Shown: positions 18,265-48,476 of the stretch, in pieces
How positions within the stretch are numbered: the stretch's first letter is position 1
Layout: every line of letters starts with the position of its first letter
Assembly: GCA_964422835.1 (NCBI GenBank)
Contig: CAYRCR010000005.1
Coordinates: 1 to 52,842, forward strand
Direction of reading: 5' to 3'
Length of the DNA stretch: 52,842 nucleotides
Source: an uncultured Gammaproteobacteria bacterium
Lineage (GTDB): Bacteria > Patescibacteriota > Microgenomatia > Daviesbacterales > UBA10151
The notes under the pieces: model-generated
Seen by the model: the letters and a program-made list of their open reading frames with translations, nothing else
Databases searched by the model: none
Told to the model about the DNA's origin: nothing
Made by a program: the position numbers and the translations under genes

Positions 18265-19506
18265 TTGAATATACTTACTAAGTTATTGTTCACTCTATTT
18301 ATTTTATTTTTTTCTTTAGGCGTTTTAAGCCCGCATGCAAATGTTCGGGCCAATGTTTTTGGCAATAATGATTATCAGTTGCGCTGCCCATTCCCTTCTC
18401 CTACACCGGTTCCAACTCAAATTCCTATTCCTTCTCCTACTCCCACTGCTCCCATCCCCACACCAACACCTGTTCCCAGTCCAATTCCATCCCCAACACC
18501 TTCTCCATTTCCGGCACTGACACCAACACCAACTCTTCCACCCACACCTACCCCCAGTCCTACTCCTGCAGTAACTCCAGAACCAACTTCAGCACCGGTT
18601 GCAGTTTCCGGCGGTCAGGGAGGACCATCAGGCGGTAGAGATAGCGGTGGAGAAAGCGCCCCGGCTCCATGCGGAGCAAGCAATCCCGGAGCAACCACAC
18701 TTATTTCCGCCACACCGAAAAGCGCCACAAACGTTGAGTTAAAGTGGAGTAAAAACCCCAATGCTACCGATTATAATGTCAGCTACGGTCCGGGATCCGG
18801 AAATTACCTGTATGGTCTGTCCGGTACCGGTAATACTGATACAGTCACTATTTCAGAGCTTGACTCAAATCAACGCTATTGTTTTGTTGTTTCTCCGGTT
18901 AATGATTGCGCTCCGGGTCAAATTTCAAATGAAATATGTATCGGCGAAGCAAAGAAGGTTGTGTTGGGTGTTTTTACCGGAGGAGGTGAAGTGCTGGGAC
19001 TGTCCAGTACTGCCTCCGGCGACGATGCAACAGATTCTACTCCGGATACTACATTACCGGATGAGAAAATTATTATTGATCCGGCAGATTTTACCAACCC
19101 GGTAAAGGTGTTGGGCGTACCTACCCGGATTACAATTCCGGCTTTGGATATTGATTTGCCGGTAGCGGAGGCAAAAGTGGAAAATGATCTTTGGCAGACT
19201 TTTGCGGGTTTTGCCGCCCACGGAGTAGGTAGCGCCAATCCCGGTGAAAGATCTAATGTGGTTATCTTTGCCCATAACCGGGCCGGATTATTTGGTAATT
19301 TGAAATATGCCCAAGTTGGCAGCGAGATTACGGTTTTGAGCAACAACAGGAAATTCAGGTATCAGGTATCAGAAATCAAAGAGATAACTCCGGATCAGAC
19401 AAGCACGATAGGTCCAACTCAAGAGGAAACATTAACACTTTACACCTGCAGCGGGGAAAATGATAAAAAAAGATTGATAGTTATAGCCAGAAATATTGGC
19501 GCTTGA
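18265..19506 (+). CDS. sortase fused to Pro/Thr linker and FN3 module
   Basis: N-terminal signal/TM, (PT)n linker, FN3, then sortase motifs [18 protein letters not shown] (His), LTLYTC (Cys), KRLIV (Arg); TTG start after TTGACA..TATAAT at 18213-18242. Confidence 0.9.
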
Positions 19507-19547
19507 CAATTATTAGTTTTGATATTAAATTTTAGACATTTATTAAA

Positions 19548-19576
19548 CCATGGCCCAAGAGGGCCGTGTTTTTTTA
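19548..19576 (+). terminator. intrinsic terminator-like hairpin
   Basis: catggccc-aaga-gggccgtg followed by T7; lies downstream of sortase and of a TTGACA at 19503. Confidence 0.6.
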
Positions 19577-40229: not shown

Positions 40230-40586
40230 ATGACAAAGTTATTCGTTGGAGGGCTGCCATACAGCCTGACTTCTGATGAGCTTCGCGATATCTTCTCTAA
40301 GGTAGGTGCAGTACTTTCTGCCACCGTTATTACTGACAAGTTTTCCGGACAAAGCAAAGGTTTTGGATTCGTGGAGATGGAAAAGGATGAAGAAGGGCAA
40401 AAAGCCATTCAGGATTTGAACGAAACTGAAGTACAAGGAAGAAAAATCTTTGTTTCTGTTGCCAGACCCCGTGAGGAAAGGCCTCAAGATGGAGGTTTCG
40501 GAGGTGGAAGAGGTACAGGGGGAAGAGATTTTAACCGTGGAGGGGGATTTGGTGGAGGAAGAGATAGAGGTGGAAGAGGAAGATAA
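40230..40586 (+). CDS. RRM RNA-binding protein with Gly/Arg-rich tail
   Basis: RNP2 KLFVGGL, RNP1 KGFGFVEM, RGG tail. Confidence 0.95.
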   Translation: MTKLFVGGLPYSLTSDELRDIFSKVGAVLSATVITDKFSGQSKGFGFVEMEKDEEGQKAIQDLNETEVQGRKIFVSVARPREERPQDGGFGGGRGTGGRDFNRGGGFGGGRDRGGRGR

Positions 40587-40606
40587 TTTTAAATTGTCTT
40601 TCGAAG

Positions 40607-40637
40607 AAAAACAGCTCCAGCAATGGGGCTGTTTTTT
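40607..40637 (+). terminator. intrinsic terminator
   Basis: aaaaacagctcca-GCAA-tggggctgtttttt; apex gctccagcaatgg identical to the terminator at 241-253. Confidence 0.85.
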
Positions 40638-40653
40638 GTTGTATAATACAGAC

Positions 40654-46183: not shown

Positions 46184-46261
46184 TGGGGTGACTGAGGGGA
46201 TTTGAACCCCCGGCCTTCCGCTCCACAGGCGGACGCTCTAAACCGCTGAGCTACAGCCACC
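46184..46261 (-). tRNA. tRNA-His (anticodon GUG)
   Basis: GGTGGCTGTAGCTCAGCGGTTTAGAGCGTCCGC-CTGTGGA-GCGGAAGGCCGGGGGTTCAAATCCCCTCAGTCACCCCA with G-1 and encoded CCA. Confidence 0.96.
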
Positions 46262-46283
46262 ATATAAGTGGTATTGTACCACT

Positions 46284-46340
46284 AAAAAAGCCCCTTGCGG
46301 GGCTTTCTTAGAGAACTCATCAACCTTACGGTCAATAAGT
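46284..46340 (-). ncRNA. candidate ~57-nt small RNA: GUAA hairpin plus GCAA terminator
   Basis: Minus strand acttattgacc-GTAA-ggttgatgagt, tctctaag, aaagcccc-GCAA-ggggctttttt. Confidence 0.62.
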
Positions 46341-46346
46341 GCTTGA

Positions 46347-46376
46347 AGAATACCATATCTTCTATACCCTTGTCAA
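46347..46376 (-). promoter_or_regulatory. sigma70-type promoter of the second small RNA
   Basis: TTGACA (46376-46371), 18 bp, TATTCT with TG extension; predicted start at hairpin base 46340. Confidence 0.7.
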
Positions 46377-46396
46377 CCCCCAAAATTAGGGTACAA

Positions 46397-46439
46397 ATCC
46401 TAAGCGATGGTGAGCTTGTCGAACCGGAGTCGAATGGAT
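46397..46439. repeat. nested TGAGC..GTCGAA-type palindromic repeat remnants
   Basis: atcctaagcg[atggtgagcttgtcgaacc]ggagtcgaatggat. Confidence 0.5.
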
Positions 46440-48232
46440 CAATCCCCTAAAATCAGCCTCCAAAACTCCTTGGGGTTGGTGAGGGCTGACAGGAAATCAG
46501 GTTCCAAAGTACCAAAATCCAATTTATTTTCTCCCGGTTTTAGTTTCAAACCAACTGTCTTGGGCTTATAAAATGGTTTATACAGGGTAAAGTCAAAATT
46601 ATAATCCGGCAGGAGATATTTACCCTCAAGAGGAGCCGAGATACCATTTTGGTCCAGTATAACTTTGGCCGTTGCGGACATTACATCCGAAACAATTTTC
46701 AAAAGGTACTCTCCGGAAAAATCCTTTTTCCAAGGGAGGCTTGCAAAAACTTGCAGGGCTACTGGTGACTTTGCTTCGATATCATATTGGTAAATTTTGT
46801 CATCAAAAGGTTTACTCCCCGCAAAAAGCTGCAGGGAGAGTTTTTGTTTACCGGGCTCCGAAGCTTTGAGCCTGACATTAAGGGTAACTTCATTACCGGG
46901 TTCAATTTTACCCGCTGCCCTGACCGGAGTAATATTAAAGGTTTCACCGCCTTGTATAGCACGAAGTTCAAGGGGGTCATACTCATTCCAGATTGACTGG
47001 CCGGTGTTTTTAAAGGCCAGCGACATGTCATAATTTTCCCCCGCCACAATAGTGGAATAAACTAAACTGCGCGAAAGATCGGCTTTATTTTCCTGAGCCG
47101 GCCTTCCTGAAACTTTGGGCAAACTTTGAATAGCCTGATACATAGGATAATAGTCCGGGTATTCCACCCCCAAAATATCCCTTCCTGCTGGCAGGATTTT
47201 CTCATTTTGTGACTCTCCCGTATGCTTCTTGAATGAAAAACGGTCAAACGGTTCTTCCTGATAGGTTAATAAAAAGGGCGTAACAGCCACAATAGCAGAG
47301 TCAATCCAGCATTTTGTAAATGCTTCCTTAAAGTTCCGGGAAACCAGTTCAACGGAAGGCAGGCGGCTATCATATTTTATGCCTTCGGCATGTTTCCAGC
47401 CTGTTTCTGTGATAAATATTGGCAGCTTTTTAACCCCCATACCTTCAAGAAACTCTCTTTCCCATTCCCAGGTCCAGACAGTGCCTTTGCCGTAATCATC
47501 CGGGGATCCGGCAAAATTAGGGTTCGGATAAGAGTGGGAGACCCAGCCGTCCAGTCTATTGAATATTCCGGGAACCGCACTTTCCATTTCGGCAGTAAAA
47601 CTAACCTCATCCTGATAGAAGGGAAGTTTATTGGGCGCAGAAGCATCAAGCCCGGCGTTGAGAACAAAAAAATCATCATTTTTACTTTTTAAGGCCGTGA
47701 TGGTTTTATCTAAAACCCTTGCATAAGAGACGGCATCAACTTTATTTCCCCATTCCAGTGCATGGTTGGGCTCATTATAGATCACCACATAACGGTTTTT
47801 GACAGGCCAAACAAGGGAGTCCAGAAAATCTGCCCAAGCCACTTCTTCCCCTTCATAGGGGAGTTTCCAGAAGGCTTGCCCGGAAATTGGCGAAGAAACA
47901 GGTTCAGTGGCAATTCTCACAATCGGGATGAGATGGCGGCGGCGGAGGTCGTCAAAAAATTTCTGCCAGGCTTTTTGGTCGCGGTTTTTGCTTTCTATTA
48001 AAACCGTAATATAGCCCCAATCTCCGCCCGAGGAATTAACCAGAGCTGCGGCGGGAGAAGCTTCGTCGGCATTGGCTCCAATAATGTGGATACCAAACTT
48101 ATTGTTGGGAGAAGAAAGTGGGTCAACGATCGCAGAAGCAGGCGAAGTGAAAAGTGTAAAGTGCAAAGTGAAAAGTAAAAGGAAAATAAAAAACTTGACT
48201 TCGTGTTTTATTCGGGTTAAACTAAATATCAT
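46439..48232 (-). CDS. secreted clan GH-A glycoside hydrolase with Ig-like C-terminal domains
   Basis: Signal peptide ending ASA; YNEPN acid/base, SHSYP, FITETGW nucleophile; FKNTGQSIW Ig-like domain; start uncertain (48232 or 48274). Confidence 0.8.
   Translation of the reverse strand: MIFSLTRIKHEVKFFIFLLLFTLHFTLFTSPASAIVDPLSSPNNKFGIHIIGANADEASPAAALVNSSGGDWGYITVLIESKNRDQKAWQKFFDDLRRRHLIPIVRIATEPVSSPISGQAFWKLPYEGEEVAWADFLDSLVWPVKNRYVVIYNEPNHALEWGNKVDAVSYARVLDKTITALKSKNDDFFVLNAGLDASAPNKLPFYQDEVSFTAEMESAVPGIFNRLDGWVSHSYPNPNFAGSPDDYGKGTVWTWEWEREFLEGMGVKKLPIFITETGWKHAEGIKYDSRLPSVELVSRNFKEAFTKCWIDSAIVAVTPFLLTYQEEPFDRFSFKKHTGESQNEKILPAGRDILGVEYPDYYPMYQAIQSLPKVSGRPAQENKADLSRSLVYSTIVAGENYDMSLAFKNTGQSIWNEYDPLELRAIQGGETFNITPVRAAGKIEPGNEVTLNVRLKASEPGKQKLSLQLFAGSKPFDDKIYQYDIEAKSPVALQVFASLPWKKDFSGEYLLKIVSDVMSATAKVILDQNGISAPLEGKYLLPDYNFDFTLYKPFYKPKTVGLKLKPGENKLDFGTLEPDFLSALTNPKEFWRLILGD
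48195..48223 (+). promoter_or_regulatory. promoter of the dinB operon with candidate SOS box
   Basis: TTGACT-17-TAAACT with TTCG-N7-TTCG (48200-48214) in the spacer; ATG 7 nt after the -10 (leaderless). Confidence 0.65.
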
Positions 48233-48476
48233 GGTTGAAATTTTGGAACCAATTAATGTTTGGGCCTTTTTCAAAAACGGGGTAATTTCCCCCTATCTTT
48301 TTTTCTGGAACTGCCGCCAAATCAAGGTTGATAAAATAAACCTTATTCATACTACAAAAATTGGGACTTCGTTATTTTACCACTTTGCCATCTCTTCCGG
48401 AAATAACTTCTACCAGTTGAGGCTGGACACAAATAAAATGAAGTGGTTTATCGAAGCAGTCGACTCCGAACCATGA
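48231..48476 (+). CDS. small hypothetical protein translationally coupled to dinB
   Basis: 81 aa MVEILEPINV...PYLFFWNCRQIKV...YQLRLD...W; ATGA overlap with dinB. Confidence 0.75.
   Translation: MVEILEPINVWAFFKNGVISPYLFFWNCRQIKVDKINLIHTTKIGTSLFYHFAISSGNNFYQLRLDTNKMKWFIEAVDSEP

Follow-up and report, generated by a model that had tools for sequence, protein, structure and literature searches.

A predicted small structured RNA gene ahead of tRNA-His, conserved in a family of Daviesbacteria-like Microgenomates

What is encoded in the short region between the gene of a 611-amino-acid (aa) protein and tRNA-His in an uncultured Daviesbacteria-like bacterium? The region lies on the minus strand of contig CAYRCR010000005.1 (assembly GCA_964422835.1), of which positions 1 to 52,842 were analyzed (hereafter the window, a stretch of 52,842 nucleotides (nt)). 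The best relatives of a neighboring gene carry the Daviesbacteria-like Microgenomates name. The host genome comprises 983,509 base pairs (bp) in 39 contigs, with 40.5% G+C, and is 99.67% complete. Regulation by RNA is almost uncharted in the candidate phyla radiation (CPR), to which this organism belongs, because these bacteria are uncultured and their genomes have been annotated for proteins only. An earlier note on this DNA had proposed a tRNA-adjacent small RNA at this place. In our analysis, positions 46376-46282 of the minus strand read as a self-contained gene for a predicted small structured RNA of about 57-59 nt. That this is a real conserved RNA gene we consider very probable, and it represents a new RNA family of a known kind, the bacterial small RNA gene.

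The elements of the locus are listed in Table 1. The promoter, which appears to be of the sigma-70 type with an extended -10 and to lie close to the consensus, was the top promoter-like site between 45800 and 46700 (10/12 with the TG), an interval in which the promoter scan found seven sites compared to a mean of 1.4 in shuffled sequences. Judged from the promoter geometry, transcription would start on the first base of hairpin 1, whose strands are ACTTATTGACC and GGTTGATGAGT on either side of GTAA. The terminator reads in DNA as AAAGCCCC, GCAA, and GGGGCTTTTTT. Its GCCCC-GCAA-GGGGC hairpin is followed by TTTTTT, as in an intrinsic (Rho-independent) terminator, and it was called by a stem-plus-T-run scan written for this analysis. 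The A-rich 5' strand of this helix pairs with the entire U tract, the helix extending 2 nt past the tract, and on the 3' side the sequence continues with AGTGGTACAAT and then tRNA-His. Termination at this helix is what the sequence suggests, with a likely RNA 3' end at about 46284-46282.

Table 1. Positions of the features at the small-RNA locus, its neighbors, and the look-alike unit near the start of the window
Feature	Position	Strand	Basis
-35 hexamer TTGACA of the small-RNA promoter	46371..46376	minus	read from sequence and promoter scan
Extended -10, TGg + TATTCT (hexamer 46352-46347), 18-nt spacer from the -35	46347..46355	minus	sequence and promoter scan
Predicted transcription start A, 7th base past the -10, first base of hairpin 1	46340	minus	promoter geometry
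Hairpin 1 (P1), 11 bp including a G-U, GUAA cap; base ACUUA.../...UGAGU	46315..46340	minus	fold and covariation
Unpaired linker UCU, within the conserved GUUCUC motif	46312..46314	minus	fold and column conservation
Terminator helix, 13 bp, GCAA loop; CUAAGAAAGCCCC / GGGGCUUUUUUAG plus a closing C-G	46282..46311	minus	fold and covariation
Extended -10 of tRNA-His, TGg TACAAT; TGg is the conserved UGG after the small RNA	46273..46281	minus	sequence
tRNA-His (GUG), body 46260-46184, encoded G-1 at 46261	46184..46261	minus	Rfam and tRNA reading
Upstream gene, 611-aa protein, no Pfam match	46439..48274	minus	reading frame and Pfam search
Look-alike unit: TTGACA-17-TATGCT, three hairpins, terminator, z -7.2	146-265	plus	sequence and fold

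When the 76-nt RNA was folded, it reached -35 kcal/mol compared to -15.5 +/- 2.9 kcal/mol for shuffled sequences (z -6.69), and none of 200 shuffles was as good. In the minimum-free-energy fold, five of the first 64 nt were unpaired, none of them between the two helices, and in the family consensus a 3-nt linker was the sole unpaired stretch separating the helices. Neither hairpin has internal loops. All elements that the earlier note had read at 46284..46376 of the minus strand (TTGACA-18-TATTCT, an 11-bp GUAA hairpin, and a GCAA-capped terminator) are present in the sequence. The 8-nt linker it had also described exists as a region between the hairpins, but it is mostly paired: CUCUAAGAAAG pairs with CUUUUUUAG, leaving about 3 nt (UCU) free, an arrangement backed by a covarying pair past the U tract.

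Blastn with the window sequence alone turned up relatives before any covariance model had been built; when the region was compared with 40 related genomes, the hairpin-linker-terminator part was found in other genera at 75-98% identity. Covariance model R1 was made from six sequences of five genomes, the window's own sequence being one of the six seed rows, and model R2 from 70 hits. All genomes were metagenome-assembled, and related genomes are not independent samples. Of the 96 genomes in the window's family, R1 matched 73, belonging to 49 of 63 genera (E <= 0.01; one to three copies per genome). R2 matched 93 of the 96 (61 of 63 genera) at E <= 0.001, a partly circular count, most of its training rows coming from the same genomes that were later searched; the three family genomes without a match are 90-98% complete. 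In an even sample of the class (151 genomes, including the unpublished G160), R1 found matches in six of the seven family genomes besides that of the window (G000), and outside the family in four of 143 genomes, all of them weak (E 3e-4 to 1e-3). The family is restricted to one order/family of Daviesbacteria-like Microgenomates, uncultured groundwater bacteria, and it amounts to a non-coding gene kept in nearly every genome of an order.

The window locus (46278-46341, minus strand) scored 88.9 bits with R1 (E 8e-17) and 82.6 bits with R2, and was the single significant place that R1 found in its genome. The genome holds one copy of the small-RNA family. Where the earlier note had proposed a multi-copy, tRNA-adjacent small-RNA family, the family is real, structurally selected, and tRNA-adjacent, but it is represented once here. 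In a search of the window against Rfam 15, only tRNAs reached the gathering threshold. Matches at the small-RNA locus at E <= 10 were at chance level (the best, Atu_C8, with 22.1 bits against a threshold of 50), and the long-form relatives matched no Rfam family. The full-text literature searched on small or non-coding RNAs of CPR bacteria or Patescibacteria did not describe the family; only unrelated TIGR-Tas work surfaced.

Selection on the structure was evident from an alignment of 70 sequences, in which standard pairs occupied 94.6% of 1531 cells and both sides changed in 19 of 24 pairs. None of 500 shuffles attained the observed covariation on any of five measures, and when the partners were slid by 1-3 columns, the proportion of paired cells fell to 47-56%. 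A 40-row alignment gave the same covariation picture. The alignment was fitted to the model, which favors structure; the compensatory pattern is still plain by eye. Across the 70 sequences, all 11 pairs of hairpin 1 changed on both sides somewhere, and 99.3% of the terminator-helix cells were paired. The pair just 3' of the U tract was UA in 36 sequences, GC in 28, and AU in 6, and never unpaired, so the RNA extends at least 2 nt beyond the U tract. G-U and U-G cells numbered 173 versus nine A-C and C-A cells, an excess indicating that the folded molecule is the RNA of the promoter's strand and not its complement or the DNA. Between genera the RNA core was 85-98% identical and thereby more conserved than the neighboring protein (44-61% over long alignments). 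Pairing of the linker UCU with the 3' UGG as a further extension of the helix was considered and rejected, as it showed no covariation and many mismatches (13 U-C and 6 U-U at one pair).

Letters are nearly invariant at the base of the closing helix (ACYUR/YARGU), in the linker (U-Y-U-C), along the A-rich strand and the U tract, and in the G-U-G that follows; within the linker, alignment columns 92-95 are nearly invariant. The window carries this core as ACUUA...UGAGU, UUCUC, and CUAAGAAAG/CUUUUUUAG, with UUCUC linking the conserved bases of hairpin 1 and the terminator. Hairpin 1 varies at its apex across the family: the loop may be GAAA, GUAA, GCAA, or GCGA, the apex pairs change, some members carry tandem hairpins, and in many genera a second hairpin or a three-way junction stands in place of the whole apex. 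Such a junction, about 100 nt long, occurs in one large genus and others, where the closing helix is again the same (ACCUGU...ACAGGU). A widespread 57-nt paralog, which R2 did not find in the window's genome, has a hairpin of 6-7 bp. The suggestion that the GUAA hairpin is a recognition element does not fit this pattern, the apex being the least constrained part of the family and often replaced.

The surroundings of the family were examined in 90 members, comprising 70 R1 hits (E <= 1e-4, fetched loci) and 20 hand-picked 57-nt R2 hits. A promoter scoring at least 10/12 within 130 nt upstream was found in 84 of the 90, compared to 10.8% of 3000 windows drawn at random from these loci. In members of the simple form, the -10 ended 7-8 nt ahead of the model match. 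In 22 of 23 long forms, the closing helix (ACCUGU/ACUUGU) began exactly at the seventh base after the -10, and in the other (L040) it began one base later. The window locus shows the same arrangement, a sigma-70-type promoter of its own whose predicted +1 coincides with the start of the closing helix. Conserved sequence of two kinds was also seen ahead of the -35, with AAATTGGGG in members of the window's type and GATCCATTTTGTnCTA in others.

A tRNA gene on the same strand lies within 150 nt downstream in 37 of the 90 members (His 27, Arg 4, Gln 4, Lys 2), which raises the possibility that the unit is a leader or attenuator of tRNA-His, the tRNA being transcribed from the strong upstream promoter and the terminator acting as a conditional stop. 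The direct position upstream of tRNA-His in 27 members would suit such a role. However, a TGnTAnnnT stands between terminator and tRNA in 33 of the 37 tRNA-adjacent members and ends 8-12 nt before the tRNA in 26 of the 33, so the tRNA has a separate promoter, in agreement with the earlier suggestion that the unit is independent of tRNA-His. No alternative (antiterminator) pairing was seen, and many members have protein genes or riboswitches downstream instead. A 12-codon frame (ATG at 46319) lacks His codons, and its ATG is missing from relatives; the frame is not conserved, and a leader peptide was rejected on this basis. Control of tRNA-His by attenuation is accordingly very improbable.

The 57-nt paralog precedes flavin mononucleotide (FMN) riboswitches (at three of eight loci in one set and five of 20 in another) or tRNA-Gln; the window's genome has no FMN riboswitch. 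In three relatives (L192, L196, and L198), an insert of about 50 nt, flanked on both sides by TTTTTTTGTG, was observed just after this paralog, with the FMN riboswitch promoter following the second copy; it resembles a miniature insertion whose target was duplicated. In two other relatives, L007 (at about 1900-1930) and L018, the tRNA-His promoter leads into a 5' fragment of the gene (GGTGGCTGTAGCC...), which gives way to unrelated G+C-rich sequence, and an intact tRNA-His lies about 330-410 nt farther downstream. This arrangement suggests an insertion into, or a partial duplication of, the tRNA gene.

What might the RNA do? The conserved letters sit at the junction of the two hairpins, which favors recognition by shape at that place. 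The small number of unpaired nucleotides, the covariation of a position inside the conserved linker motif with its 3' partner, and the retention of the junction while the apex is replaced argue for protein binding over base pairing. In the mechanism that we propose, the promoter would start transcription at A46340, where hairpin 1 begins, and release of the RNA would follow near 46284-46282. The finished molecule would be almost fully paired, two hairpins with blunt ends connected through 3 nt and no seed left accessible. Stable and abundant, it would serve in trans as a decoy or scaffold that binds protein. Recognition would be by shape, at the place that brings together the 5' end, the linker, and the 3' end, with the bases of hairpin 1 and of the terminator on either side of UUCUC. 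The terminator would also close the transcript of the upstream gene and shield the tRNA promoter. The explanation as a whole, a self-contained gene that is the single copy of its family and makes a trans-acting protein-binding RNA, appears to us reasonably probable; the trans-acting protein-binding function itself is put forward tentatively. The readable expression signals make the small RNA a ready target for metatranscriptomics and in vitro work.

Several points weigh against this proposal. The tests made indicated no protein partner. Among the 19 sequencing runs that contain this stretch, none is listed as an RNA run, and the transcript is deduced from the DNA, as are its ends and abundance. 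A standard terminator scan called no terminator at the small-RNA locus, probably because it counts the T run into the stem, where it pairs with the A run. The R2 count of 93 of 96 genomes is inflated by training on the same genomes, and the four weak R1 matches outside the family were taken at score alone. The conserved GUGG past the U tract is not explained by RNA pairing and fits a -16/extended -10 element of a downstream promoter better; as a general flank of terminators it finds little support, NGTG following the T run in only two of 58 predicted terminators of the window's genome. Finally, a TGnTAnnnT was present within 45 nt downstream in 48 of the 90 members, compared to 8.7% of random windows and five of 58 other predicted terminators of the window's genome, an excess that suggests a possible cis role of the unit at the promoter that follows.

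The excess of downstream extended -10 elements leads to the main rival explanation, in which the unit is a cis-acting terminator-promoter cassette. It would stop transcription from the upstream gene and from its own promoter at an extended -10 that lacks a -35, and either insulate that promoter or hand polymerase on to it, the RNA being incidental. Such a role is consistent with the 37 members close to a tRNA, with the 19 of 90 members in which the -10 hexamer directly follows GUGG and UGG serves as the TGn (as in the window, TGgTACAAT), and with the position of the 57-nt paralog directly ahead of FMN riboswitch and tRNA-Gln promoters. Published single-molecule work also reports that RNA polymerase can slide and reinitiate nearby after intrinsic termination (PMC6978380, PMC6978322, PMC10372574). 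On the other hand, hairpin 1 would not be needed for insulation or hand-off, yet all 11 of its pairs show compensatory changes, and the sequence conservation of its base and of the linker is left unexplained. No extended -10 was found within 45 nt in 42 of the 90 members, the addition of a -35 to the tRNA promoter would be a simpler route to strength, and duplication of the module together with a flanking promoter would explain the adjacency without mechanistic coupling. We regard a purely cis-acting role as rather doubtful.

It is also conceivable, if improbable, that the unit loads polymerase: the terminator would free RNA polymerase onto the -35-less extended -10 of a stable-RNA gene and, by sliding and reinitiation, couple a strong promoter to the promoters of tRNA-His, tRNA-Arg, tRNA-Gln, or a riboswitch. 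The transcript of about 60 nt would then be too short to matter itself, and the hairpin would serve fast and clean release. If true, this would be a natural, evolutionarily conserved case of RNA-polymerase recycling, so far known from single-molecule work. The coupling to tRNA and riboswitch promoters offers a natural test case of whether a terminator placed atop a promoter insulates, occludes, or feeds it.

A trans-acting RNA might alternatively work by base pairing. According to passages of a report on Yfr1 of cyanobacteria, an ultraconserved 11-nt unpaired motif between two stem-loops blocks the translation of porin mRNAs (PMC2796815). The RNA described here resembles Yfr1, as far as that report goes, in being a short RNA (about 57-64 nt) with two stem-loops flanking a conserved motif, and a stand-alone gene with its own promoter and terminator in small, streamlined genomes; the C/U-rich GUUCUCU between the hairpins could by analogy be a seed for the ribosome-binding sites of target mRNAs. 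Unlike the unpaired 11-nt seed of Yfr1 that acts on such sites (PMC2796815, in the same passages), only about 3 nt are free here, and the rest of the motif lies inside the terminator helix. A variable position of the motif covaries with its 3' partner, so structure rather than a target constrains it. When the genome was searched with fuzzy matching (up to two mismatches) for the 15-nt linker motif and its complement, one and two other sites were found, respectively, whose encoded context was unchecked, and the complement did not lie at an obvious target position. All Rfam families, searched at E <= 10, gave no Yfr1 match at the small-RNA locus. A seed-bearing RNA of this type is unlikely.

The protein-binding RNA that we favor can also be compared with other known systems. 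DapZ and MicL of enterobacteria are small RNAs of the 3'-untranslated-region type with their own promoter and a terminator shared with the upstream mRNA; they are Hfq-dependent and base-pairing, and have a free U tail. The present RNA is similar in that its promoter lies at the very end of the upstream protein gene and its terminator is probably shared, and it differs in having a paired U tail, no exposed seed, and secondary family copies that do not stand behind the 611-aa gene. The rtT RNA of the Escherichia coli tyrT operon is likewise a non-coding small RNA with a physical link to a tRNA gene. It is processed from the tRNA transcript, in which it lies downstream of the tRNA, whereas the RNA described here has its own promoter and terminator and lies upstream of a tRNA with a promoter of its own; the rtT model RF00391 gave no match in the Rfam searches. 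6S RNA and CsrB-type RNAs are abundant, stable, highly structured RNAs that sequester proteins. Here the likeness is confined to the proposed mode, a structured RNA recognized by shape, with none in size or structure, and 6S RNA was rejected, as RF00013 found nothing in the window's genome.

A type I toxin on the opposite strand was rejected because the 51-aa antisense frame (46295-46450) is not hydrophobic. The RNA of the signal recognition particle (SRP; 4.5S RNA) was rejected as well: RF00169 and RF01854 had no match in the genome at E <= 10, no Ffh domain was found, and the hairpins are without internal loops.

The search for SRP components gave an observation in its own right. In this 99.67%-complete genome, besides the two RNA models, neither the Ffh M domain (PF02978) nor the SRP54-type GTPase domain of Ffh and FtsY (PF00448) was matched. 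A P-loop motif search returned seven frames, of which the most Ffh-like, the one scanned, was an AAA ATPase. Across the 151 genomes of the class sample, RF00169 gave one weak match, and PF00448 matched in 37 genomes; among the listed matches, all had 24 bits or less and covered at most about 115 of 196 model positions, and five genomes just reached the cut-off. The controls were positive in 12-14 of 14 known genomes, and the literature searched contained no statement of SRP loss in this class. The absence, if real, would mean a loss of SRP across the whole class.

A second unit in the window had been taken for a copy of the same RNA. The look-alike unit lies between a divergent tRNA-Lys(UUU) and a gene starting at 314 that, from its first residues, looks like a membrane-fusion/efflux-adaptor gene. 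Considered as a two-copy family (181-265 and 46284-46376) recognized via a shared ACC-GUAA-GGU apex, the two units have in common a TTGACA promoter, the identical 10-nt apex hairpin, and a GCAA-capped terminator. A strict genome-wide scan gave 11 promoter-terminator pairings (some at the same site), and both units are among them. Neither R1 nor R2 listed the 181-265 unit genome-wide at E <= 10. With filters off, R1 gave the 146-265 unit 18.5 bits via its second hairpin and terminator only, which is a different hairpin, and without the GUUCUC or GUGG core. The region at 100-320 had no blastn relatives in the 40 related genomes. The apex 10-mer ACCGTAAGGT occurs exactly twice in the 983,509-bp genome compared to about 1.6 times expected from base composition, and in the true family the apex is the least conserved part. 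In addition, the terminator stem of the look-alike is nearly the same as that of the RNA recognition motif (RRM) gene at 40600-40630 and less like that of the small RNA. A two-copy family is thus highly unlikely, and for annotation the look-alike unit should be kept apart, as an orphan candidate small RNA or leader.

A link of the small RNA to the RRM protein had also been raised. R2 matched the terminator of the RRM gene weakly (27.9 bits), yet at E <= 0.1 only two of 30 RRM loci matched, that of the window's own genome included, which does not bear the link out. The RRM gene (40230-40586) has at 40587-40650 of the plus strand a terminator of the same A-run/U-run design, with TGTATAAT, which is the next gene's promoter, immediately behind it. 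The strict scan also found two more short promoter-to-terminator units, at window positions 19503-19575 and on contig C27 of the same genome (1148-1222). The C27 unit ends in TTTTTTTGTGG, like the small-RNA family; neither R1 nor R2 matches it.

The protein encoded upstream of the small RNA may be a secreted, glycoside-hydrolase-like protein, judging from its hydrophobic N-terminus and its NEPN and ITETGW motifs. A homolog was found directly upstream of the small RNA in 21 of the 38 relatives' loci tested, which points to an ancestral order of hydrolase-like gene, small RNA, and tRNA-His. Sequence reading and the scan revealed no intervening terminator between the 611-aa gene and the small RNA, and the transcript of the gene probably ends at the small RNA's terminator, which the two would then share. 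A co-restriction of this gene with the RNA was rejected, the gene being class-wide (126 of 151 genomes), and in one genome of another family (n = 1) it is followed by tRNA-His without such an RNA between them. The -35 of the small RNA lies about 60 nt past the stop codon of the 611-aa gene here and about 17 nt past it in several relatives. Between the stop codon and the promoter, a stretch of about 35 nt (46432-46396, minus strand) appears insertion-like in comparison with other genera. It is single-copy in the window's genome, and similar stretches occur at 11 other places in nine related genomes (79-94% identical over 27-56 nt), so that it is possibly a small mobile or repeat element.

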